From a virus (Duplodnaviria; Heunggongvirae; Uroviricota; Caudoviricetes), in IMG/VR virus record IMGVR_UViG_2802429234_000006: 15,576 nt of DNA; one strand, written 5' to 3'. This document shows positions 2,039 through 14,208 of the stretch, piece by piece. The position numbers and the translations under genes were made by a program. The first letter of the stretch is position 1, and the number at the start of each line of letters is the position of its first letter. The notes beneath the pieces were generated by a model that ran no database searches, was not told where the DNA came from, and saw only the letters and a program-made list of their open reading frames with translations.

Positions 2039-2218
2039 TCACCGTCGCGGCCTGTCCGGTTTCTTCCACTGATACGGCCTCACATCATCCTGCTGGTGGC
2101 GTTCCTGTTGCAGCACAACGGAAACAGGCGCTGAACACCTGTTAATTTTGCTTGCTGGTTGTTTGATTTCGGCAATGCTGCGGATCATCTCCAGCAAATC
2201 GGCTTCGGTGATGGTCAT
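2039..2218 (-). CDS. Small hypothetical protein (59 aa; below the size cutoff of the ORF track)
   Basis: ATG at 2216-2218 with AAGGTG 7 nt upstream on the minus strand; hand translation MTITEADLLEMIRSIAEIKQPASKINR... runs to a TGA at 2039-2041. Sits immediately downstream of the repeat array. Confidence 0.3.
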   Translation of the reverse strand: MTITEADLLEMIRSIAEIKQPASKINRCSAPVSVVLQQERHQQDDVRPYQWKKPDRPRR

Positions 2219-2225
2219 GATTTAC

Positions 2226-2510
2226 ACCTTAGGAAATCTTAGGGGCTGGTTGACACTTTCCGGCTTGAGACCTTAACAAATCTTAACATCGCAGGTTGAC
2301 ACACTTGACACTTTTTCGCGAAAAACCTTATCAAACCTTAGCATTTCTAAGCATGGCAACTTGACACTTTTCGCGATTTTTTCGGCTTTTTGACGTGGTA
2401 AATCTGGCGCAAAGTCAGTAATGGCGAGGCTTCCAGCGAGGTTGACACTTTTTCGCGTTCAGAGTGTAAAGTGTCAACCTGGCAAGCTGCTCAACTTGAC
2501 ACTTTTTGAT
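2226..2510. repeat. Array of short direct repeats: at least 7 copies of TTGACAC (three as GTTGACACTTTTTCGCG), one inverted copy (GTGTCAACC), plus interleaved CCTTAnnAAAnCTTA repeats
   Basis: TTGACAC at about 2250, 2297, 2305, 2361, 2442 and 2495, with variant TTGACGT at 2389 and inverted copy at 2471-2479. CCTTA-type repeats at about 2226, 2271 and 2326. Non-coding interval between the HTH gene (stop 2512) and the small ORF (start 2218). Confidence 0.6.
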
Positions 2511-2511
2511 G

Positions 2512-3039
2512 TCATTGATGGTCTGATTTTTCCCATTCAGCCAGGGCGTTTAGCCCGGCTTCACTCCATGATTCCAGTTCATCGGGATAATCACCTGCAA
2601 CATAGCAGAGTTCGCAACGCAGCATACGAATTGCCAGCCTGGCATTACCCCGCAAATTGTATTGTTCAAAGTAATGCTGCCCGTCGCAATCCTCAAGGCA
2701 GATAGCACCATCATCAAGAAATTGCACTTCCCAGCCTAATTCCCCGGCTGCATCCAGCACACGCTGCTGTATGCCCTCGTCCGTTGCTGGCGCAGGAATT
2801 TTACCGTCTCTGGCCTTAACTGCTTTCCAGAACTCGCCCCACGTCATTTCCAGCGTTCTTTCTGGCCACATTTCAGAAACTGCGTCTTTTCCCTGTGCTG
2901 GTGGGCTGTTCCGCTGCTCTGTCGCTTCCACATCGATTTTTTTACCGGACATGATCACTTCGCCTTTCTCGATCCAGTCGTAAACTGTCTGGCGGCTTAC
3001 GCCTTTGTATTTGGCGTATTCGGCTTTACTCATCAACAT
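2512..3039 (-). CDS. Helix-turn-helix DNA-binding protein (175 aa); N-terminus resembles the winged-HTH of excisionase / AlpA / lambda Nu1 (TerS N-terminal) type proteins
   Basis: ATG at 3039 with GAGGTG 6 nt upstream (the track start at 3048 is a GTG). N-terminal MSKAEYAKYKGVSRQTVYDWIEKGEV fits the pattern of Nu1-like NKKQLADIFGASIRTIQNWQEQG. Acidic C-terminal half. Family assignment is from recollection, not a search. Confidence 0.65.
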   Translation of the reverse strand: MLMSKAEYAKYKGVSRQTVYDWIEKGEVIMSGKKIDVEATEQRNSPPAQGKDAVSEMWPERTLEMTWGEFWKAVKARDGKIPAPATDEGIQQRVLDAAGELGWEVQFLDDGAICLEDCDGQHYFEQYNLRGNARLAIRMLRCELCYVAGDYPDELESWSEAGLNALAEWEKSDHQ

Positions 3040-3138
3040 GTAGCTCACCTCATGCGTATACGATAAAAAATAATTTCATGCGGAAAGGGAATGCGTTGTG
3101 GGTATGGAGGAAAGGGGCAATAACCGCCCCTTACTGAT

Positions 3139-3411
3139 TCAGTTGCGCCAGGATGGCTGGCTAAGCGTGGTTTTCATTACATCATTGACGACCTGTTTTA
3201 CGATTTCTGTGTTGGCAGTCGTGCTTTCAACATCAACAAAGCCATAATCGCCAATTTCCACCGTCAGGGATTCCAGTTTCTTCCCTAGAGCATCAGGCAA
3301 CTCTCCACTGAACCGGTGCTGAAGATTTTCCACCAGCAACGCCCTGAATGCCTCGCTGTTCTCTTTTTTCTGCCATAGCTGGCGTTTATCCACTCTGATA
3401 TTTAATTTCAC
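3139..3411 (-). CDS. Hypothetical protein (90 aa), second gene of a small coupled operon
   Basis: Its ATG at 3411 overlaps the stop of the upstream 55-aa ORF (ATGA). A weak hairpin (GGGGC...GCCCC, about 3107-3125) lies downstream. Confidence 0.5.
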   Translation of the reverse strand: MKLNIRVDKRQLWQKKENSEAFRALLVENLQHRFSGELPDALGKKLESLTVEIGDYGFVDVESTTANTEIVKQVVNDVMKTTLSQPSWRN

Positions 3412-3575
3412 AGTCTCACCTCTTTAAGTGCCTTATCCATCAGTTGCCGGGCGATAACATGAATCGACGGTGCCACACCAAGCACAGATTTCTGACGCTC
3501 TTCGTCCTGGATGCGTTGCAGGGCTTCGATCTGGCTCCGGGAAAGTAAAACTGGCTTTACTCCGTGATTTTTCAT
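3408..3575 (-). CDS. Small protein (55 aa), possible DNA-binding regulator
   Basis: ATG at 3575 with AGGGAG 6-7 nt upstream; the track ORF upstream of this ATG is Cys/Tyr-rich and probably not coding. Palindromic operator-like sites lie 20-75 bp upstream. Confidence 0.5.
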   Translation of the reverse strand: MKNHGVKPVLLSRSQIEALQRIQDEERQKSVLGVAPSIHVIARQLMDKALKEVRL

Positions 3576-3594
3576 GATGCTCCCTTCTGAATGA

Positions 3595-3650
3595 CAATAA
3601 TTGCAATTATTGCACAAAATGAAATGATACCAACGATAATTGCAATAAAT
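3595..3650. promoter_or_regulatory. Two operator-like palindromes sharing an ATTGCAAT core: perfect 18-bp CAATAATTGCAATTATTG (3595-3612) and imperfect ATAATTGCAATAAAT (3636-3650)
   Basis: Perfect dyad symmetry read directly from the sequence, positioned in the presumed promoter of the 3575->3139 operon, centres about 39 bp apart. Confidence 0.4.
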
Positions 3651-3853
3651 GAAACAAAAAGCATCAATAAACCAACCTTCAGCACTAAATGCTCTGATTT
3701 TTCTGCAAAAGTATGGCAGATGTTGCTGCATGCAAACATAAAGGAAATAGCAGAAGAAACAGCGGGGAGTGAAAAGGGGAAGTTTTTATAAATACACGAT
3801 TGTCGCCCCACTGCAGGTTAACAGCCACAAGCTCCATGATAATAACTTGTTAA

Positions 3854-4177
3854 TTATTTCATCAGATTTTTCATTACTTGCGCGATTGAGTACACAAGCA
3901 AAAACTCGGCAGCCGCAAGAGTATAAAAAACATAAATTCGCTTAGCCCACCGACGATGAAAGAACTCCTCAGCATGGCCGGATGTTCGAGATACAAGCCA
4001 TGCACCTACTGCACACAGAGCAGGTGAAATGAGCACAGTTATAAACCAGATTGTGATGCCCATCCCATGCCTACTGATAATAGCCATTGGTATTGCAAAA
4101 ATGAATGTTAGAGCAGCATTAGCTAATAGAATATCTTTTAAAGTATTTTCAATTAGTTTTTCTAGATTATCTTTCAT
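3854..4177 (-). CDS. Small integral membrane protein (107 aa, 2-3 predicted transmembrane helices)
   Basis: ATG at 4177 with a G-rich SD (GGGGGG) 5 nt upstream. Hydrophobic stretches FIFAIPMAIISRHGMGITIWFITVLISPALCAVGAWLV and VFYTLAAAEFLLVYSI. AT-rich. Confidence 0.55.
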   Translation of the reverse strand: MKDNLEKLIENTLKDILLANAALTFIFAIPMAIISRHGMGITIWFITVLISPALCAVGAWLVSRTSGHAEEFFHRRWAKRIYVFYTLAAAEFLLVYSIAQVMKNLMK

Positions 4178-4240: not shown

Positions 4241-5383
4241 TTAAAGGGAACTTTTTTTCGCCCCATCAATTTCTGCCTGACAAATTTCGTCATTTGTAAA
4301 TGAGTACTGCAGATAGACATATCCCTGAGTGGAATTGTTCGCTCTGGCCTCAATAGAGATAGTATCAATATTGTTTTTTAATGGTATTTCTTTTGTTCCC
4401 TTCCATGTGGCAGATAAGAAGCGTTCTTTTTTGTTTAGCCCCCTCATCCAGTCCTGAGGCTCTTTCCAAATTGAACCAGCCAGCAAAAAGTCTGTAGTAT
4501 CAGCCTTTCCATACAGAGAACTTAAAGAATTTCTCAATTCTTCAAACTTGGATTTAAGAGCCAATCCATAGCTATCAGTATCAATATTTTTTCCTAAAGC
4601 CCGTATTTGACATAAACCAGCTTTCGGGGAGATCAACAAACCATACATTTCAAAATCTGCGTTTTGCTTCGGTAATTTATCAGAAGTATACAGATTTACA
4701 CTGTCTGGTAGTGGCTTGAGCTTAGCACCGATCATATCTTCGATGTTTTTCTGTGTAAGACCGGCTTCTAAGCCGAACGGACCATCCGCTGGCGGGAGTA
4801 AAGGAAGTTGCTCTTGGGAATTTTTGGCTGTTACTTCCGTTTCAGTACTGTTTTTTGCGTCATTATCTTGTACTGATGCCAGCTTAACTTCAGCGAGGCC
4901 ATACTTGGCTGTGAGGTACTTTTGCTGCAACATTGCCATGGTCTGCTCTTCAGTGGCAACAGTAGATAATTTTAGTACCTTTATCAGACCACCGCTATAC
5001 TGACGAGCATCAGCTTTGGCTTCGTTGATTTTTGCATCTAAGCTGTCAATTTCAGTTTTAATTGAAGCCGCAAGCTCAGGATCAGGTTTAACTCCAGATA
5101 CAACAACATCAATTTTAGCACCTGATTCAATAGCATTAATACGCTGTTCCAAAATCGCTTTATTAGTTCCTAATATTTCCAGTCTTGCTGTTGTCAGATT
5201 TTTTATCAACCCACCAGAAAACTGCTGGTCAACTTCCTTAGCTGCTGATATTTCACCTTCCGTTTGCGACAGTTCAACTTTAAGAGCCGCTACTTCCTGT
5301 TTCTGTTCTGGAGTTAACTCTTCTGGCCCACATCCGGTTAACATTACTATACCGACTAATGTTGCAATTAAAGTTTTATTCAT
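4241..5383 (-). CDS. Lipoprotein (380 aa) with an internal tandem repeat and a coiled-coil-like N-terminal half
   Basis: Signal peptide with lipobox MNKTLIATLVGIVMLTGC. Internal repeat DQQFSGGLIKNL / ARQYSGGLIKVL. Long ORF followed by a strong terminator. Confidence 0.7.
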   Translation of the reverse strand: MNKTLIATLVGIVMLTGCGPEELTPEQKQEVAALKVELSQTEGEISAAKEVDQQFSGGLIKNLTTARLEILGTNKAILEQRINAIESGAKIDVVVSGVKPDPELAASIKTEIDSLDAKINEAKADARQYSGGLIKVLKLSTVATEEQTMAMLQQKYLTAKYGLAEVKLASVQDNDAKNSTETEVTAKNSQEQLPLLPPADGPFGLEAGLTQKNIEDMIGAKLKPLPDSVNLYTSDKLPKQNADFEMYGLLISPKAGLCQIRALGKNIDTDSYGLALKSKFEELRNSLSSLYGKADTTDFLLAGSIWKEPQDWMRGLNKKERFLSATWKGTKEIPLKNNIDTISIEARANNSTQGYVYLQYSFTNDEICQAEIDGAKKSSL

Positions 5384-5420: not shown

Positions 5421-5804
5421 TCAGGAACCCAGATGCAATTGAATATTCATCTGCTCAGCAACGTAGTAGATTTCTTCAGAAAGCATCAACAAAAAACCAA
5501 GAGAATCCCATCCTCTGTTACTGACTACAATTGTTCTTTTTTGGTAATTCCTGAATGCCTTACCATTGGGCTGATGTAATCCCATCCCGGCATGTGCCCG
5601 GCTGATGGTTTCGCGCATCTCCCCGAAATTATCCTGCCTTGCCGGTAGGCGTGCTGCCTTGCGTATACATTCCGCGCGACGTTTTGCCGCCTGTTCCCGT
5701 GCTTTGTCATCATTCGCCAGCATGATGACCTCAGCCCATCGCTCCGCCGCTCTCCGGTACAGGCCACGCGCTTCCAGTGCTTCCGCTTTACTGTCGCGTA
5801 TCAT
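5421..5804 (-). CDS. PerC-family-like transcriptional regulator (127 aa)
   Basis: ATG at 5804 with AAGGAGG 10 nt upstream and an ATGA overlap with the preceding ORF. N-terminal KAEALEARGLYRRAAERWAEV resembles the conserved N-terminal motif of PerC/Pch-type activators as I recall it; not confirmed by search. Confidence 0.5.
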   Translation of the reverse strand: MIRDSKAEALEARGLYRRAAERWAEVIMLANDDKAREQAAKRRAECIRKAARLPARQDNFGEMRETISRAHAGMGLHQPNGKAFRNYQKRTIVVSNRGWDSLGFLLMLSEEIYYVAEQMNIQLHLGS

Positions 5805-6049
5805 GCGCTTTTTCCCTCCTTCATGGCCTTACGCTGGCGCTTGTGCTTCTCATTCAGCGCCATCAGCCGCGTTTCTGCGTCCTGTTGTTCCTGTGGTGTC
5901 ACCTCGCCGCATGGCTGGCCTTTCAGGTCGTAACGCACTCCACCAGCAACCAGAGCGCGGTAATAGCGCGGAGACTGCGCATAAGATGCCAGCGTCGCAC
6001 GTAATGCCCTTAGCCCGAATGCCAGCCCCCTGACGGCGATATCCTGCAT
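5801..6049 (-). CDS. Hypothetical small protein (about 82 aa from the ATG at 6049; the track extends to a GTG at 6160)
   Basis: Stop overlaps the PerC-like start (ATGA). GC-rich region with overlapping alternative frames, so the start is uncertain. Confidence 0.35.
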   Translation of the reverse strand: MQDIAVRGLAFGLRALRATLASYAQSPRYYRALVAGGVRYDLKGQPCGEVTPQEQQDAETRLMALNEKHKRQRKAMKEGKSA

Positions 6050-6117
6050 CAGGTCGTCGAATATCCCCCACCTTAAGCGGCTTCGGTGCTTCCCGGCTGA
6101 ATAATTCAGGCCACAAC

Positions 6118-6342
6118 TCAGTGGCGGTTTTTGCGCTGCCGTTTGGTCATATGCCGCCACGGTGTCGCCCCTGTGGGCTTCTGCTGCACTTTCTGGTTAC
6201 CGGGCATCACTTTATGCGCCGATGTGGTTTTATCCTGCTCCTGTGCCGACTGCGTCGTTTTCTGCGTCGTGCCGAAAATGCCTTTTGGCTTTCTGTTAAT
6301 GGTCAGCTTTGTCATGCTCTTCCCCATCATTGTTGCCGTCAT
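6118..6342 (-). CDS. Hypothetical small basic protein (74 aa)
   Basis: Hydrophilic, Lys/Arg/Thr/Gln-rich ORF just downstream of the putative origin. No clear SD at the first ATG; an internal ATG has GGGAAGAG upstream. Competing plus-strand frames are Cys-rich and look non-coding. Confidence 0.25.
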   Translation of the reverse strand: MTATMMGKSMTKLTINRKPKGIFGTTQKTTQSAQEQDKTTSAHKVMPGNQKVQQKPTGATPWRHMTKRQRKNRH

Positions 6343-6496
6343 ATCGGCGTGTAATCATCAAAACAGTCTGATTGTCAAAATTACATATCTGCTTTTATGC
6401 CTTTTTCTGGTCGGATGGCTGACGGTAGCCACCCGTAATACAAAATTTGAGCAATCACTTTTCTGTACTCTATAAGGCGTAAAAAACCATTTTTAC

Positions 6497-6769
6497 CGGG
6501 ATATCGGGATACAAACAAAAAACAACTTATTTTTCATTATGTTATGTGGTTTTTCGTATCCCGCCATATCCCGGTAAGTTTTTTTTTGCTTATGCATCAA
6601 TAACATATTTCGGGATACGTTCCGGGATACAGTGATTTCGTTTATTTTTAAACCATTCGTAAACCAAAATACTGGGATACGGCGGGATATGGCGGGATAC
6701 GATAGCAACACATAAGCAATTGATATTTATGTAATATATTTTTCATATCCCGATATCCCGCATATCCCG
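6497..6769. repeat. Putative replication origin: 12 copies of the 8-mer (C/T)GGGATA(C/T) in direct and inverted blocks, interleaved with AT-rich spacers
   Basis: Copies at 6497, 6505, 6611, 6623, 6673, 6683 and 6693 (forward) and 6556, 6566, 6745, 6753 and 6762 (inverted). Spacers contain long A/T runs. Lies 30-300 bp downstream of the replication protein gene stop (6802). Confidence 0.7.
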
Positions 6770-6801
6770 CGATTTTTGACCCTCTGCGAGCGTAGGCGGT
6801 T

Positions 6802-8934
6802 TTATTCGTCTTCAGCCAGGTCAATCAGCACGATAAATCGCTGCTGTGTTCCGTTAATCTTCACCGTTTTCGATGTCCAGCGACCGGGTTCTGCACAAAC
6901 CAGCACTCCGGCTTCCTCCAGCGCCTGGCACCCAAAGTTTCTGGATATGCCGCATAAAATTTCTCCATCAAACACTGACGGAATAATGTGATATTCGGGT
7001 TTTCCATCTTCCCGCTTACCGCTGACAAGATACCCTGCAAGGTTATTTATACGGGATGCATAGTGGTTATCCATATCTCCATTGCTTTTCCCGTAGGTAT
7101 AAGGCTGAAAACGGCTCAGGGCATGGCGCTGAATAAAATCACGGGCGCGGCTGATGACCTGGTATTTTTCCCGGTTTTCCAGCCCGAAATCCTGTAACCA
7201 GTCATCAAAAGCCCGTTGCGTTGCTGCCCGACATTCTTTTGCTGTCCAGCCAGTAATTGCGGTGGCAAGTTCTCCGGCCGCATCCAGCATGGCAAAGCGT
7301 GAAGCCACACGTCTGACCTGTGACGATGCATTTTCAGGCAGATTTCCCAGCCAGGTATTTTCTTTATCGGAAGTGGTGTTAATAGCCAGTTCCTTATGAG
7401 CGGATAACCAGCGCACCCACTCACGCCCCGCAGCTCCACAATAATTTGATGAAAGTCGCTTTATTGCTCTGGCATGTTGATCACCATCGTCATACCCGTT
7501 AAAAACCGTTGTATCGGTAAAGGGAACGCTTAGCAGCCGCACCAGTTGCCCGGCTTTTGGGGTGATCCCCCCTTTTAACAGGAAGGTCTCAAAATCTTCT
7601 TCCCCTGTGCTTAGTGCCGCTATTTTCCAGCGCATTACTGCACGATTGCCGCCATCTTTTCGTCCCTGAATTCTCCCCACACCGTTAAACAGGCTGTAGG
7701 CGGATTGCGCGATGTCATTAATCCTTCCTCCCTGACCAATTTCATCAATGGGGATAAAGCCATCATTACGTGCGGCAGCTTCCACCGTCAGTCCGTGCCG
7801 GGTGGCATCCCACGAAAGTTTGAGCATTTCAGGATCGCCATAAAGACTGGTGGCAGCTTCCACTGTCGTGGTTTTCCCTGCTGACGACTGCGCGAAAAGG
7901 TGGATACCAAAACAACTTCCGCCCACAAGAGAATTAAGGGGTGCTGCCAGTCCGACCAGTACCCCAAGCATCATTGAGTGATTACCTCGCATCAGGGAGG
8001 CGACATTATTCCTCCATTCCTGTACCGTCCCCCTGACGATATAGCCTTTGATGGCTGCAGATCCGCCACAGAATGCCACTGGACGATCCGGTACACCAAT
8101 CACCTCACCATCTGGCATAACATAGGCTCCACAATGCCATCCGGCTGTTGATGTGACCTCCCACACAGTACGATCTCCCTGACGTTGCAGGTATTCCGCC
8201 AGTTTATTCAGTAAATGGGCGCTGGTGGTGATTGCAACACCCCGTCCACGTAACCTCGCCCATCCTGCTGGCATACCGATTTCATTGCGCGGCATCGCTT
8301 CGTAAATAATTTTCTGTGTTCCTTCCGGGATCATTTCAATTATCAGATACGCTTCCCGACCATCATTACCAATACCCGCTGTGCGCATCCTGTCACTCAA
8401 CCAGGTTTCCTTATGATTCAGCTCCTCTGCTCTGGTATTGGGTATTGGCTCGACATACCAGAGCGCACCATCTTTTTCGGTGATATGCGGTTTCATGGGA
8501 TCTGTTCTTCCGGGCAATCCACCCGCTCTCCTGACTTCCTCCGTCATGGTTTCCCCGCGCTCTGCCTGTTCGCGGATCCGTTGCAGGTAGTCGCGCCAGT
8601 TCTCAGGCTCCCGGTCGGGGATACCTTTGTATAATTTCGCCTCCTGTACGCCAGCCAGCGCCAGTTTTTCGGCGACAGCGTTAATCAGGATTGGCTCAAT
8701 CTCCCCCGCGATATAAACACGCGCAAAGCGGCGCTCATCGTCGACAATGCGGATATTCGCAAGCTCTGCAAGTTGCTTTGGCCCCAGGTAAACAGGCGGC
8801 ACGCTATCGCCATGTTTTCGTCCTTCGCTTTCAATCCAGTGTTGAGCATGGGCGTAAGCGTCCGTCCCGGCAAAAATGATTACCTCAGTGAATTTATCCT
8901 TCGGCTGATATTTTAAATTCGGTGCGTTTTTCAC
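6802..8934 (-). CDS. Replication protein, primase-helicase-like (710 aa): P-loop NTPase core with a possible Toprim-like N-terminus
   Basis: Walker A-like AQSSAGKTT and Walker B-like FIPIDEIG read from the translation. GTG start at 8934 with GGGAGG 6-7 nt upstream, overlapping the stop of the preceding ORF (GTGA). An iteron array lies immediately downstream. Resemblance to DUF927 / phage-plasmid primase families is from recollection. Confidence 0.8.
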   Translation of the reverse strand: MKNAPNLKYQPKDKFTEVIIFAGTDAYAHAQHWIESEGRKHGDSVPPVYLGPKQLAELANIRIVDDERRFARVYIAGEIEPILINAVAEKLALAGVQEAKLYKGIPDREPENWRDYLQRIREQAERGETMTEEVRRAGGLPGRTDPMKPHITEKDGALWYVEPIPNTRAEELNHKETWLSDRMRTAGIGNDGREAYLIIEMIPEGTQKIIYEAMPRNEIGMPAGWARLRGRGVAITTSAHLLNKLAEYLQRQGDRTVWEVTSTAGWHCGAYVMPDGEVIGVPDRPVAFCGGSAAIKGYIVRGTVQEWRNNVASLMRGNHSMMLGVLVGLAAPLNSLVGGSCFGIHLFAQSSAGKTTTVEAATSLYGDPEMLKLSWDATRHGLTVEAAARNDGFIPIDEIGQGGRINDIAQSAYSLFNGVGRIQGRKDGGNRAVMRWKIAALSTGEEDFETFLLKGGITPKAGQLVRLLSVPFTDTTVFNGYDDGDQHARAIKRLSSNYCGAAGREWVRWLSAHKELAINTTSDKENTWLGNLPENASSQVRRVASRFAMLDAAGELATAITGWTAKECRAATQRAFDDWLQDFGLENREKYQVISRARDFIQRHALSRFQPYTYGKSNGDMDNHYASRINNLAGYLVSGKREDGKPEYHIIPSVFDGEILCGISRNFGCQALEEAGVLVCAEPGRWTSKTVKINGTQQRFIVLIDLAEDE

Positions 8935-9221
8935 TTCTTACCTCCCGCAACCAACATTGCCCGGATTTTTTTAATATTCGTGGCTGCACGTCTCGCCACC
9001 GCCTGTTGTTTGTTTTCCACCAGAATAAAATCACGCTCAAACTGACGGCGCGGCATTACGCAGTCATATTCGTAAGCCTCACGGCGGTAGGTGATATTGC
9101 CTGGCGTAACGTGACGAATAACCACTCGTCCACCACGTCTGGTGTCGCGGTAAATATCTCCGTGTCTGATTTCAGGCCGAGAGAGACCGCTGGCAGTAAA
9201 GCCAGAATTTTTCTTTTTCAT
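8931..9221 (-). CDS. Hypothetical basic protein (96 aa), translationally coupled to the replication protein
   Basis: ATG at 9221 with AGGA about 10 nt upstream; stop overlaps the replication gene start by 4 nt. Confidence 0.5.
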   Translation of the reverse strand: MKKKNSGFTASGLSRPEIRHGDIYRDTRRGGRVVIRHVTPGNITYRREAYEYDCVMPRRQFERDFILVENKQQAVARRAATNIKKIRAMLVAGGKK

Positions 9222-10629: not shown

Positions 10630-11478
10630 TTACACATGGCTGTTTTCCTCCATGCGACGGGCTAACCAACGCTGCGAAAGGCGAATTAATTCAGCTTTCC
10701 GCTGGTGGTAGTCCTGGCCTAACTCAATCAGCGTGATATTGCTCTGCTCAAGGTAAGAAAGGTGCTCAAGCTGCAACGTGCTCATGTGGTCGCGTGGTTC
10801 GCCTGTGATGCCGTTCGCCAGTGCCCACTGTTTTGCAGTCATGCCACCCAGCACGATACGCGCCAGCATATTGGCTTCCGTGGTGTAATGGTGCTGTAGA
10901 GTGTTTTTACCCAGTTCAGCCCGGTACGCCTCCAGCGCGGCACACATTGGCTTAAAGTAGCTGGCAACTGTGATACGGGCTTTCAGTTCCCGGCGTAACG
11001 CTGCGGAACGTACAGGCGCAACCTTGTGTAGCTCTTCCTCGCATTTGATGAAGTACTGACGAACGGCGCGCCCCTGTTCGGTGCGTTCGACCATCGCCAG
11101 TTCTTTCGCCATGTTCGTGGAGATCAAATAGTCTTCACTGCGGCGATCACCGCCGCGCTTTGTTGTCCAATCAGAATCAAACTGTTCAATATTTACACTT
11201 TGGTTCCCCCGTTTCGGGGAATCAAAGTACAAATTTTCTACAACTTCAAAATCCACGCCATTTTTAAATCCGTACTCATCAATACGTCCTTTAATCCAGG
11301 TAGTGAAATCACGGCCTACCCCGAGCGCCTTATGCAACGCTCTGGCGCTAACAATATTGGTTTCACGCCCGCCAATAACGCCGGAAATAACCGGGATAAT
11401 TTCACCAAAATTTTGCAGATTCTGGTTTTCAGGTCGAATGAAGCCCTGCCCCTGTACGGGCGTTTTTCGCAGTTTCAT
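10630..11478 (-). CDS. Phage antirepressor-like protein (282 aa; AntA/Rha/KilA-type regulatory domains)
   Basis: ATG at 11478 with GGAG 7 nt upstream. Segments ARALHKALGVGRDFTTWIKGRI and ISTNMAKELAMVERTEQGRAVRQYFIKCEEEL resemble conserved blocks of phage antirepressor / Rha-family proteins as I recall them. Confidence 0.65.
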   Translation of the reverse strand: MKLRKTPVQGQGFIRPENQNLQNFGEIIPVISGVIGGRETNIVSARALHKALGVGRDFTTWIKGRIDEYGFKNGVDFEVVENLYFDSPKRGNQSVNIEQFDSDWTTKRGGDRRSEDYLISTNMAKELAMVERTEQGRAVRQYFIKCEEELHKVAPVRSAALRRELKARITVASYFKPMCAALEAYRAELGKNTLQHHYTTEANMLARIVLGGMTAKQWALANGITGEPRDHMSTLQLEHLSYLEQSNITLIELGQDYHQRKAELIRLSQRWLARRMEENSHV

Positions 11479-11555: not shown

Positions 11556-11753
11556 TCAGGTAGCTGTTCCGCGTGATTCCGCAATACGCTGATTAATCCA
11601 CTCGTCAATTTCACTCTCAACGAAAGCAATCGCTCGCGAGCCAATTTTTACAGGTTTAGGAAAACGCCCTTGGGCAATGAGTTTATAGATCCATGCCCTG
11701 CCATAGCCTGTACGGCGCATGGTTTCTGGCATACGAATTAAAGATTGTGACAT
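11556..11753 (-). CDS. alpA: AlpA-family transcriptional regulator / excisionase-like HTH protein (65 aa)
   Basis: ATG at 11753 with GGGAG upstream (the track start at 11822 is a GTG and runs through the operators). Sequence MSQSLIRMPETMRRTGYGRAWIYKLIAQGRFPKPVKIGSRAIAFVESEIDEWI is characteristic of AlpA/Xis-type proteins. Confidence 0.8.
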   Translation of the reverse strand: MSQSLIRMPETMRRTGYGRAWIYKLIAQGRFPKPVKIGSRAIAFVESEIDEWINQRIAESRGTAT

Positions 11754-11760
11754 GATAATC

Positions 11761-11793
11761 GTCTCCCGTTGTTTATTGATGCCTACGGGAGAC
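11761..11793 (-). promoter_or_regulatory. Leader hairpin (8-bp inverted repeat GTCTCCCG / CGGGAGAC with a 17-nt loop) that includes the alpA Shine-Dalgarno sequence
   Basis: Inverted repeat at 11761-11768 and 11786-11793. On the minus-strand mRNA the downstream arm contains GGGAG, the SD of alpA. Confidence 0.35.
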
Positions 11794-11820
11794 ATTGAAG
11801 CAGGTAAGACATTGGATATC

Positions 11821-11855
11821 ACCGCAATTGCGGTGAATGATACCGCAATTGCGGT
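11821..11855. promoter_or_regulatory. Tandem pair of perfect 14-bp palindromes ACCGCAATTGCGGT (operator-like), centres 21 bp apart
   Basis: Identical copies at 11821-11834 and 11842-11855, each perfectly self-complementary, in the interval between the 251-aa gene stop and the alpA start. Confidence 0.5.
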
Positions 11856-11867
11856 ATAGGACTAGAA

Positions 11868-12623
11868 CTACGATTTAATTGATTTATTGGCTTCAGCAAA
11901 CTTTGCTTCCAGCGTTCTTGAACTCATCCCCGGCTTACCTTCAAAATGCCCCAATAAATTACTAATAATAGAGCTTTGATTTTCGAATACAGATTGCTTA
12001 ATACCAGCAGGTGAACGCCCTAACATTAGAAAAAGCAACCCTCCAATAATGTTTAAATATGTTGTTTCAGAACGTTGGTCAATGTTTTGCACGGAGTTAT
12101 CAACCATTCGTCGTAGTGAATCACGTTCCCCTTGTAATTCGGAAATTTCATTTTTCTGCTGTTGGAAAGTCTTCATAGCATTATCTAAGCGAATATTAAG
12201 ACGTTTGTTTTCAGCCTGAAGAGTTTGATATGCCTCGACTGTAATTCCAGCATGTAACTGCTGCTCAACAGCATCAAAAAGGAAAGCTGGTTTTTGGTTG
12301 GGATAGTTTTTTGACATCCATGATTTCAGATCGGAATGGCGGACGGTTAAACGGTGCTTAGCAACCTGTTCTCCAGGTTGAACAGTTTTACCATCACGGC
12401 CATAAGGAATTTCACAATTATGGATTGCATCTAAAATTTTCTCAGCATTAACACGCAAGCAAGGCCATTGAGGGAACATTCCAACGCTAGGTAAAACTCC
12501 ATCTCCCACTCGCTCCAATATTAAAACTTCATGAGCAATTAAATTACACCAACGTAGCGCCGCTTCAATTGGAGTGTAATATGCCTTTTCAAGAGAACTA
12601 CAGCTTTTTGAATTGTAAGTCAC
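11868..12623 (-). CDS. Hypothetical protein (251 aa), AT-rich, with a central coiled-coil-like segment and a C-terminal hydrophobic stretch
   Basis: Long ORF with a GTG start at 12623 and GAGGT about 8 nt upstream. Noticeably lower GC than the flanking integrase and alpA. No recognisable catalytic motif. Confidence 0.55.
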   Translation of the reverse strand: MTYNSKSCSSLEKAYYTPIEAALRWCNLIAHEVLILERVGDGVLPSVGMFPQWPCLRVNAEKILDAIHNCEIPYGRDGKTVQPGEQVAKHRLTVRHSDLKSWMSKNYPNQKPAFLFDAVEQQLHAGITVEAYQTLQAENKRLNIRLDNAMKTFQQQKNEISELQGERDSLRRMVDNSVQNIDQRSETTYLNIIGGLLFLMLGRSPAGIKQSVFENQSSIISNLLGHFEGKPGMSSRTLEAKFAEANKSIKS

Positions 12624-12751
12624 TCTGTGCTACCTCGCACCCTCTGTAAAAGTGGCTGTGCCAGCCCGCAGAGGTGTACGGGTTTTCAGGAGCGACCCTA
12701 GACACAGCCTTTTCTTAATCGCTCAAAGTCTACTACTGTATACTCAACCAG

Positions 12752-13966
12752 TCACCCGCATTTTCCGAACTCACCATGCACCACATTTCCGCCATGCTCG
12801 AGCGAATCCATATAGTCGGCATACCACTGGAGCATCTCCCGGCGACCATCCAGATATTGCGCATGGTTGTATGTGCCACGAATTGAGTTTTTATCGACGT
12901 GTGCAAGCTGTGTCTCTATCCACGCGGTGTTATAGCCCTGCTCATGCAAAATGGTGCTCATGGTGTGCCGGAATCCATGACCAGTAACCTTTCCGTTATA
13001 GCCGATGCGTTTAAATACTTGGTTTATGCTAGCCTCGCTCATTGTTTTCCTTGGATCATTACGGCCGGGAAACATAAGCGGATAATTGCCAGTTAATTCT
13101 TTAATCTGCCCAATAAGAGAAAGAGCCTGCTTAGACAAAGGCACCACATGAGGGCGACGCATTTTCATCCGTGAAGCAGGTATCTCCCAGATAGCCTTGT
13201 TGAGATCGATTTCATCCCATAATGCACCGCGCAGTTCGCCAGTCCGCAAACCGGTGATAATCAGTAGACGAGCCGCCATAACAACCAATGCACTTCCTGA
13301 GTAACTGGACAATGCCTTGAAAAAATCAGGTAATTCTTTGGCTGTGAGGAAAGGATAATGATTAGATTCATGACCTTGCATCGCGCTGGTGAGATCCGGT
13401 GCAGGGTTATACTCAGCACGTCCAGTGACAATTGCATAGCGGAAAACTTCCCCGCATCGCTGCCTCACTTTTTTGGCTTTTTCGGTAGCACCGCGCCCCT
13501 CGATACGCCGCAGCACATTCAGCAGTTCAAGTGGTTTGATTTCGGCGATTGGTTTTTTGCCAATGTAAGGGAACACATCTTTGTTGAAGGCTTCGAGGAT
13601 GTCTGAAGCATAACCAGCAGACCATTTTTTTAATTTGCTGCTGTGCCACTCAATGGCAATATCTTTGAAGGTGTTGTTTAACTGCGTTTCCCGGGCAATC
13701 TTTTCCTCTCGTTTCGCTTCCATCGGATCGATACCCCCAGCGATACTCCTTTTAGCTTCTTCACGTTTTGCACGAGCATCAGCCAAGGTAACTTCAGGAT
13801 ACACACCTAGTGCTAACAGCTTCTCTTTACCAGCTACACGATACTTGAAGCGCCAATATTTTCCTCCACTAGGTTTTACCAAGAGATACAGACCACCACC
13901 ATCAGCCAGCTTGTAAGCCTTCTCTTTTGGCTTGGCAGTGTCTATTTGACGGGCATTGAGTTTCAC
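12752..13966 (-). CDS. int: Tyrosine site-specific integrase, P4 / CP4-57 IntA family (404 aa)
   Basis: N-terminal pattern AKPKEKAYKLADGGGLYLLVKPSGGKYWRFKY and C-terminal catalytic region HGFRHT...RGTYNHAQY typical of P4-type integrases. GTG start at 13966 with GGAGG 9 nt upstream. Lies next to and co-oriented with a tRNA gene. Confidence 0.9.
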   Translation of the reverse strand: MKLNARQIDTAKPKEKAYKLADGGGLYLLVKPSGGKYWRFKYRVAGKEKLLALGVYPEVTLADARAKREEAKRSIAGGIDPMEAKREEKIARETQLNNTFKDIAIEWHSSKLKKWSAGYASDILEAFNKDVFPYIGKKPIAEIKPLELLNVLRRIEGRGATEKAKKVRQRCGEVFRYAIVTGRAEYNPAPDLTSAMQGHESNHYPFLTAKELPDFFKALSSYSGSALVVMAARLLIITGLRTGELRGALWDEIDLNKAIWEIPASRMKMRRPHVVPLSKQALSLIGQIKELTGNYPLMFPGRNDPRKTMSEASINQVFKRIGYNGKVTGHGFRHTMSTILHEQGYNTAWIETQLAHVDKNSIRGTYNHAQYLDGRREMLQWYADYMDSLEHGGNVVHGEFGKCG

Positions 13967-14132: not shown

Positions 14133-14208
14133 TGGTGCCGATAATAGGAGTCGAACCTACGACCTTCGCATTACGAATGCGCTGCTCTACCAACTGAGCT
14201 ATATCGGC
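14133..14208 (-). tRNA. thrW: tRNA-Thr (anticodon CGU), thrW-type; integration target of the element
   Basis: Minus-strand sequence GCCGATATAGCTCAGTTGGTAGAGCAGCGCATTCGTAATGCGAAGGTCGTAGGTTCGACTCCTATTATCGGCACCA folds as a canonical cloverleaf: 7-bp acceptor stem, D-arm GCTC/GAGC, anticodon loop TTCGTAA, T-loop TTCGACT, encoded CCA. Confidence 0.92.

Follow-up and report, generated by a model that had tools for sequence, protein, structure and literature searches.

Twelve GGGATAY iterons downstream of a DUF927 replication gene form the predicted replication origin of a Gram-negative phage-inducible chromosomal island

The GGGATAY array and its place beside rep

The window analyzed here, a 15,576-nt stretch of viral DNA (IMG/VR record IMGVR_UViG_2802429234_000006), is a Gram-negative phage-inducible chromosomal island (PICI) at the tRNA-Thr/proA site of an Escherichia coli-like genome. 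Directly downstream of its replication gene, rep, lie twelve copies of the word GGGATAY (Y being C or T), and both sequence comparison and analogy with characterized islands make it very probable that this array is the replication origin of the island and the predicted cognate binding site of the adjacent DUF927 initiator-helicase. An initial annotation, made from the sequence alone, had called the region a putative replication origin, and our comparisons support that call, with the repeats tracking the Rep allele and not the downstream genes.

The array stands out clearly from the rest of the window. GGGATAY occurs 18 times over the full 15,576 nt, against 2.7 ± 1.7 expected, with none of 200 shuffles reaching 18, and 12 of these 18 matches fall inside 6498-6768. 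Chance would place ~0.05 matches in these 271 nt (Poisson P ~1e-25), a figure to which both the rate over the whole window and the local base composition lead, and no second GGGATAY cluster was found in the 15.6-kb window. Along the plus strand the blocks run as two plus, two minus, two plus, three plus and three minus, which is exactly the arrangement of twelve repeats in five blocks initially annotated at 6497-6769, coordinates that proved correct to within one base. Calling the repeats 8-mers was also fair, as C precedes GGGATAY in 11 of 12 copies, the copy at 6674 having T instead. The A/T-rich stretches reported between the blocks are four spacers of 74-79% A+T, and G+C drops to 0.32-0.40 over the array vs ~0.5-0.6 in the flanks. 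From the rep-distal to the rep-proximal end, the components are as follows:

6498..6512, plus strand: iteron block 1 (rep-distal), two copies at 6498 and 6506, 8-nt spacing
6513..6555, no strand: AT-rich spacer, 43 nt, 79% A+T, between distal convergent blocks 1 and 2
6556..6572, minus strand: iteron block 2, two copies at 6556 and 6566, 10-nt spacing, in a 20-nt inverted repeat
6573..6611, no strand: AT-rich spacer, 39 nt, 74% A+T, with a T9 run
6612..6630, plus strand: iteron block 3, two copies at 6612 and 6624, 12-nt spacing, central and unpaired
6631..6673, no strand: AT-rich spacer, 43 nt, 74% A+T
6674..6700, plus strand: iteron block 4, three copies at 6674, 6684 and 6694, 10-nt spacing, pointing towards block 5
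6701..6744, no strand: AT-rich spacer, 44 nt, 77% A+T, between two convergent three-iteron blocks
6745..6768, minus strand: iteron block 5 (rep-proximal), three GGGATAT copies at 6745, 6753 and 6762, in the same sense as rep

Only 33 nt separate the rep stop codon (6802-6804, minus strand) from the start of the array, in agreement with the position immediately 3' of a 710-aa replication gene that had been pointed out at the outset. The array sits within a 486-nt intergenic region, ahead of the next genes co-oriented with rep. Blocks 1 and 5 are inverted copies of each other, as are blocks 2 and 4, and a perfect 20-nt inverted repeat pairs 6554-6573 with 6683-6702. The nested hairpin predicted for the array as single-stranded DNA (z = -6.0) follows from this arrangement of repeats and adds no separate evidence.

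Searches for other regulatory signals returned little. Neither a DnaA box (at most one mismatch) nor GATC occurs in 6343-6801, and a scan of 6100-6950 found no sigma-70-like promoter and only two terminator-like matches, both on the plus strand and inside the ProQ region. Rfam placed nothing in the array; its only matches in the window, a tRNA and an int-alpA RNA, lie elsewhere. The lone consensus match for an IHF site, at 6713 (minus strand), is not kept in relatives and was not used.

Among 5426 complete E. coli genomes, the 459-nt region 6343-6801 is present in 26, always at full length and at 87-97% identity. When five relatives from this identity range were aligned, none of the 72 GGGATA core columns varied, compared with 41 of 177 spacer columns (Fisher p = 2.5e-7); judged from this alignment, the GGGATA cores are under selection. 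The Y position, on the other hand, varied at 4 of 12 sites. Strain ZF8-1 carries a 20-nt insertion in block 4 (~3350-3400 of its locus) that amounts to exactly two extra 10-nt iteron units. Together with a CGTAA microsatellite found between blocks in Xenorhabdus khoisanae, this two-unit gain illustrates an origin that evolves by unit-length events. In strain STEC383, a 97%-identical copy of the origin (3001-3460 of its locus) lies between smrA and abgR, beside a truncated integrase gene.

The Rep protein and the repeats that follow its alleles

Several lines of comparison identify the 710-aa replication protein of the initial annotation as a DUF927 initiator-helicase. Its only Pfam match is DUF927 (residues 227-434, E 1e-40), its PHROG match is 1139, 'DNA primase' (E 2e-85; PHROGs label, DNA primase or primase/helicase), and a Walker A motif, AQSSAGKTTT, lies at ~aa 348-357. 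A profile of ten Rep homologues compared with PDB sequences matched 8tch (E 2e-14) and 5dgk (E 3e-7), and an AlphaFold (AF2) model built from 43 homologues (mean pLDDT 76.9) recovered the same two structures by Foldseek: SCCmec Cch, 5dgk (E 1.7e-19, TM 0.68 on target), and the Rep of the Staphylococcus aureus pathogenicity island (SaPI) SaPIbov1, 8tch (E 1.9e-17), followed by SaPI5 PriRep, 7ola (E 3e-4), and then by MCM proteins. Entry 8tch is titled 'Initiation of replication protein with helicase activity encoded by Pathogenicity Island SaPIBov1'. On the strength of these profile and model matches, Rep is an initiator-helicase of the SaPI Rep/SCCmec Cch family of self-loading helicases.

The two ends of the protein bear on how it might act. 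Residues 634-704 were modelled as beta-beta-alpha-alpha-beta-beta, an order that suggests a winged-helix-like C-terminus. Prim_Zn_Ribbon and Toprim_3 domains are found at the N-terminus of most DUF927 relatives outside E. coli and Salmonella (~890-950 aa), and where these other-genus relatives have the Zn-ribbon and Toprim primase, the window Rep has a PICI-specific module; by its domain content it is probably a helicase-initiator without primase activity. This module resembles the start of the EcCICFT073 Pri-Rep, with 44% amino acid identity over aa 1-145 and nothing beyond. Alignment of the C-termini could not pin down specificity-determining residues, and E. coli and Xenorhabdus Reps that have GGGATA arrays differ at many positions in the putative recognition region.

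Comparison with other Rep alleles indicates that the repeats follow the protein. E. coli 2013C-3033 encodes a Rep that is 73% identical, and the region downstream of its gene aligns block for block with the window, yet all 12 of its sites read GTGGATA, in blocks of two plus, two minus, one plus, four plus and three minus; on alignment, the word has changed in concert at every site of the GTGGATA array and the layout is unaltered. Downstream of a 42%-identical DUF927 Rep lie four CTTGTCCC copies, then an AT-rich stretch, then inverted copies. In EcCICFT073, which has a primase-family Rep, the rep stop codon is directly followed by an origin of eleven GGTAGA copies, arranged in blocks that alternate in orientation, and EcCI042, with a RepA-helicase, has AAGTGAGG repeats. 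Across the sequences compared, then, the iteron word varies with the Rep allele and its position and layout do not, so that by this comparison the array shows the allele-specific iterons of PICI and SaPI origins. As a side observation, the 2013C-3033 iterons (2160-2460 of its locus) read GGTGGATAA/T/C. The DnaA-box consensus is TGTGGATAA, and three of these copies match it at 8 of 9 positions, compared with only 5 of 9 for the CGGGATAY of the window.

The association extends to other genera. Scanning one genome per species gave 26 loci, with Reps 62-69% identical in Xenorhabdus, Leclercia and Buttiauxella, and 23 of these loci were usable; an Escherichia ruysiae locus from the same scan matched the N-terminal module only. 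In a motif-free test, we then ranked the 7-mers in the 600 nt that follow the rep stop codon. In 22 of the 23 usable loci the commonest was GGGATAA, CGGGATA or TGGGATA in reverse complement; the lone exception (L013, from X. khoisanae, ~4800-4860) has a tandem CGTAA microsatellite amid ten GGGATA copies. The top 7-mer was counted 4-11 times after rep, whereas in 222 control windows its count never exceeded 6 and averaged 2.9, and GGGATA density was 25.4/kb in the first 400 nt after rep vs 0.41/kb elsewhere in those loci.

Layout is retained along with the word. Read in the direction of rep (> being the sense of rep), relatives keep the block order 3> 3< 1-2< 2-3> 2<; the window itself has 3>, 3<, 2<, 2>, 2< and Xenorhabdus kozodoii has 3>, 3<, 1<, 3>, 2<, and their spacer sequences are unrelated. 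The equivalent of block 5 has two to three copies and lies 25-41 nt after the rep stop codon in 10 mapped related loci, and the block is also present in a Klebsiella episome. The equivalent of block 3 is a single copy in Xenorhabdus and Klebsiella relatives. In Buttiauxella the proximal 3> AT-rich 3< unit stands alone, as it does in Leclercia, where two of the proximal copies are degenerate; in both genera this unit is followed by an open reading frame (ORF), the product of which has a start like that of the SSB proteins annotated there in E. coli PICIs.

The Klebsiella episome is pYD-K10_2 of Klebsiella aerogenes (NZ_CP142848.1), a 10,541-bp circular 'plasmid' with a GGGATAA array, in the same five-block form, right after rep. 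Its genes include int, AlpA, YlcI/YnfO, an 886-aa DUF927 primase-helicase (62% identical) and a ClpP-protease/major-capsid fusion, and it is a satellite, probably an excised capsid-forming PICI caught as an episome. By analogy, this circular form lends circumstantial support to autonomous replication from rep and its origin.

Homology limits within E. coli show how the array is inherited. In more than 1000 other E. coli genomes, rep is matched solely over nt 8550-8934, its first ~128 codons, where nucleotide identity is 91-93% to the starts of 'helicase RepA family', 'DNA primase family' and 'DUF5906' genes, all preceded by DUF4222. At the other side, the ProQ-PerC module is matched in more than 100 E. 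coli genomes without the array region, and these matches end at ~6328-6331, ~15 nt before the ProQ start. Because homology stops at 8550 and at ~6328-6331, the rep body and the whole intergenic region are, as far as sequence comparison tells, one inherited unit of ~2.2 kb. Such joint inheritance of rep body and origin is consistent with a cognate pair of initiator and origin, and it argues against operators for the downstream genes. Two features are defined by these boundaries:

8550..8934, minus strand: 5' part of rep, N-terminal ~128 aa, a module common to otherwise unrelated E. coli PICI Rep alleles, and the upstream recombination boundary
6332..6497, no strand: repeat-free non-coding stretch, inherited with rep and origin and not with ProQ-PerC

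No promoter-like or terminator-like site was found in 6332-6497, which might serve the next genes as leader or promoter, or the origin as an auxiliary sequence.

Predicted mode of action and competing explanations

Experimental work on related islands frames the interpretation of the array as an origin. In PICIs, the origin directly follows the 3' end of the replication initiation gene and has an AT-rich region between two sets of iterons; in EcCICFT073, pri-rep-ori maintains a temperature-sensitive plasmid, and deletion of either rep or ori abolishes replication (PMC6092414). Function has been demonstrated for SaPI origins as well (PMC9371898). SaPI Rep is both a self-loading helicase and an initiator, the C-terminal winged-helix domain of which reads iterons of 5-6 nt; 6-12 of these iterons lie immediately downstream of rep around an AT-rich center, with at least two opposed iterons on each side (PMC9371898). 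Compared with such origins of 6-12 short opposed iterons around an AT-rich region, the window has twelve iterons of 7-8 nt, with blocks 4 and 5 opposed across their spacer, and the interval of 33 nt to rep likewise places the array immediately 3' of its initiator gene.

By extension of the SaPI model, the C-terminal winged-helix domain of Rep would recognize the iterons after island induction and excision, Rep hexamers would assemble on the convergent three-copy blocks at 6674-6700 and 6745-6768, and the 44-nt spacer at 6701-6744 is the predicted primary site of melting (PMC9371898). Rep would then load itself as the replicative helicase, with no separate loader. The minimal origin is likely to be the 95-nt unit 6674-6768, as this unit is universal among relatives and is the sole part present in Leclercia and Buttiauxella. 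The distal blocks (6498-6630, including the convergent 2+2 pair), which are conserved in E. coli, Xenorhabdus and Klebsiella elements, would by analogy probably provide an auxiliary or second loading site, or copy control. Priming by the host primase (DnaG) is a guess, made because the window Rep is without the Zn-ribbon/Toprim primase domain of its relatives.

The closest known counterparts are the EcCICFT073-type PICIs, which have the same gene content (int, AlpA, YlcI/Icd-like, small ORFs, DUF4222, Rep, origin, SSB and/or ProQ, PerC) and, in EcCICFT073, an origin directly 3' of rep with short iterons in alternating blocks round AT-rich spacers; the first ~145 aa of Rep are homologous as well. 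The named E. coli PICIs compared (CFT073, 042, RM13514, IHE3034 and ATCC 25922), which were inspected for a DUF927 type among the four Pri-Rep alleles of PMC6092414, differ in having a Rep body of the 'DNA primase family' or RepA-helicase type instead of DUF927 and in their iteron word, and some carry capsid and terminase genes, which this island does not. Proteins with DUF927 are already on record among the 'primases' of Gram-negative PICIs, whose origin is described as 'found downstream of pri' (PMC10111431). Neither the GGGATAY word nor the five-block design came up for this allele in published text, in a search that did not cover the drawing in Fig. 2a of PMC6092414.

Likeness to the Gram-positive islands is structural above all. 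SaPIs (SaPIbov1, SaPI1, SaPI5; Ubeda et al. as cited in PMC9371898) and SCCmec Cch have a Rep of the same fold family (Foldseek E 1e-17 to 1e-19), and SaPI origins also consist of 6-12 short iterons directly downstream of rep, with an AT-rich center and opposed orientations. However, the hosts belong to another phylum, and Rep sequence identity to the SaPI and Cch proteins is only 13-15%. SaPI iterons measure 5-6 nt and form two sets round one AT-rich center, whereas here they measure 7-8 nt and form five blocks with four spacers; in further contrast to SaPIs, transcription of this island is unidirectional, and its Rep has the extra N-terminal module common to E. coli PICI Reps.

Iteron plasmids of the pSC101, R6K, RK2, F and P1 type, as well as the lambda ori, also place repeated initiator sites beside an AT-rich unwinding element. 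There, in contrast to the present array, the repeats are direct and 17-22 nt long, the initiator is of the winged-helix RepA or O type and brings in the DnaB of the host, and DnaA boxes are usually present. We rejected a classic iteron-plasmid or DnaA-dependent origin given the 7-8-nt bidirectional repeats, the AAA+-like helicase initiator and the lack of both DnaA box and GATC in 6343-6801. One part of the initial annotation is thereby qualified, in that its 'classic iteron plus DNA-unwinding-element' layout holds for the iterons and AT-rich spacers, but the layout is of the SaPI/PICI type and not the classic plasmid type.

Satellite P4 invites comparison as an enterobacterial satellite at a tRNA gene in which initiator-bound octamers in both orientations form an array directly 3' of the primase-helicase gene, the binding being known from P4. 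It differs in having two separated elements, ori and crr, 4.5 kb apart, compared with the single cluster here. A P4-type replicon was rejected: Rep matches alpha only at BLASTP E 0.65, repeats form a single cluster, and there is no enrichment of the P4 octamer, TGTTCACC, which occurs once in the window, the chance level. No homologues of Psu, Sid or Delta turned up in the ORFs scanned.

P4 also bears on the likeliest competing explanation, namely that the repeats are Rep sites used mainly for control (autoregulation, handcuffing copy control or a P4 crr-like enhancer), initiation then being confined to a part of the array or taking place elsewhere. In P4 the octamers next to the 3' end of alpha, two sets of five in both orientations, are crr and not ori. 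The Leclercia and Buttiauxella relatives do without blocks 1-3, which would allow a regulatory role for part of the array, and the nested inverted symmetry (z = -6.0) would permit distant blocks to pair. Against this, the window holds no second GGGATAY cluster to act as a separate origin, and the proximal 3> AT 3< unit is universal among relatives and fits the validated PICI/SaPI layout. A controlling role bears on the distal blocks only, where it is compatible with the array being an origin, and we consider it unlikely to be what the array is mainly for.

It is less likely still, and in our judgment very improbable, that the repeats are operators through which an island regulator (for example AlpA or the repressor-like 286-aa protein) controls the ProQ-PerC operon. 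Such a role would suit an array in a 486-nt intergenic region upstream of co-oriented genes, and short repeated sites in both orientations are typical of operators. However, the repeats follow the Rep allele, and ProQ-PerC is found in more than 100 E. coli genomes that have no array region. In Xenorhabdus, Leclercia, Buttiauxella and Klebsiella, DUF927 rep genes are followed by GGGATAA arrays even though the genes downstream differ (an SSB-like ORF, hypothetical proteins, capsid genes), and no sigma-70-like promoter was found in 6100-6950.

The remaining explanation concerns an ORF that overlaps the repeats:

6493..6711, minus strand: 72-codon ORF across the iterons, not a gene

The chance that this ORF encodes a 72-aa protein, or that the repeats are a random or decaying low-complexity feature without function, is negligible: although an open frame of 65-90 codons persists on the minus strand in the five closest relatives, the ORF has no Pfam or PHROG match, is annotated in none of the 26 RefSeq genomes carrying the region, shows no third-position excess of variable columns (10/11/15 by codon position), has its frame altered by the 20-nt insertion of ZF8-1 and is without counterpart in the relative with the 73%-identical Rep, and chance is excluded by P ~1e-25 and by conservation of the core across genera. 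The ORF is an artefact of A+T-rich, symmetric sequence, and the initial annotation was right to doubt that it is coding, there being no coding signal in families, annotation, codon positions or relatives.

Some points do weigh against the array being a working origin with the mode of action set out above. The winged-helix assignment comes from the order of secondary structure elements and from the family match of the whole protein, and not from a fold search of the domain itself, and with a mean pLDDT of 76.9 and low-confidence loops the Rep model is only moderately confident. No recognizable primase was found in the island, which leaves the priming step a guess. STEC383 keeps the origin but has rep deleted and retains ProQ and PerC remnants, an orphan origin in a decayed island. 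Because rep is lost there and ProQ/FinO is frameshifted in the window, individual island copies may be decaying and non-functional.

Taking the array as the origin, we offer tentatively, and with more doubt than conviction, a three-part reading in which a plug-in replication cassette (~6332-8549) is combined with an N-terminal adaptor and a compact two-site origin. E. coli PICIs would swap this cassette by recombining at two fixed joints, after rep codon ~128 and ~15 nt upstream of the ProQ-like gene; the boundaries themselves are observed. We speculate that the shared N-terminal 128 aa might be an adaptor linking DUF927, RepA-type, D5/primase-type and DUF5906 helicases to host or helper machinery, and might replace the Zn-ribbon/Toprim primase of DUF927 relatives. 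Equally speculatively, the five-block origin might comprise two convergent loading units and a central block, analogous to the ori and crr of P4 fused in 270 nt.

The kind of origin described here is already known, and no new kind is revealed. What the analysis adds is a corrected annotation, in which a 486-nt 'empty' intergenic region is assigned and a spurious ORF removed, for a family of islands that many E. coli genomes carry, those of the O104:H4 outbreak lineage among them. With the same layout and with Reps that are 73% identical, the GGGATAY and GTGGATA arrays would be a natural specificity pair for studying how SaPI-type initiator-helicases read DNA, and PICI replication modules appear to be swapped as cassettes of rep body plus origin.

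The island around the array

The genes and RNA features that identify the island, from the tRNA gene leftwards, are as follows:

14133-14208, minus strand: tRNA-Thr (CGU)
12752-13966, minus strand: tyrosine integrase
12640-12708, minus strand: int-alpA RNA motif (Rfam RF02996, 49.8 bits)
11556-11822, minus strand: AlpA
10630-11478, minus strand: AntA-like protein
8931-9221, minus strand: DUF4222 protein
6802-8934, minus strand: 710-aa DUF927 protein (Rep)
from 6315, minus strand: ProQ/FinO-like gene
5421-5804, minus strand: PerC-like gene

Gram-negative PICIs are recognized by int, alpA and a replication gene, one direction of transcription, a specific attachment site that prophages do not use and a size of ~8-16 kb (PMC6092414). 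These element-level features are found here, with tRNA-Thr, int, the int-alpA RNA, AlpA and Rep all on the minus strand, and gene order is the same as in EcCICFT073, EcCI042, EcCIRM13514, EcCIIHE3034 and EcCIATCC25922. In E. coli 55989 and the O104:H4 outbreak strains, an island with 91% identity occupies the same tRNA-Thr/proA site, and the supplement of Fillol-Salom et al. 2018 (PMC6092414) counts the 55989 interval 296286-311648 (15.3 kb) among its PICIs. Both the PICI gene set and this listing, together with the location of PICI and SaPI origins 3' of rep (PMC6092414, PMC9371898), bear out the initial suggestion that the array lies where satellite and island origins are typically found. 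The left end of the island is outside the window or undefined within it, and the window contains no lambda/phi80-type cos sequence.

Several smaller observations concern the rest of the island. The int-alpA RNA motif is placed between the integrase gene and a 251-aa ORF (11868-12623) that precedes alpA. The ProQ/FinO gene (5801-6342, minus strand) is disrupted by a 17-nt deletion and a 1-nt insertion in a G run, relative to 55989 and ZF8-1; the frameshift yields two ORFs, 6118-6342 and 5801-6160, and the start annotated in relatives corresponds to position 6315 of the window. Cargo at the far end varies among relatives. Positions 1-1434 of the window (minus strand) are an A+T-rich ORF of 477 aa, with no family match and no PADLOC match, and E. 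coli 55989 has instead a gene for an AAA-family ATPase and one for a DUF4435 protein (2107-4063 of its locus), a pair that we take to resemble the PARIS anti-phage system.

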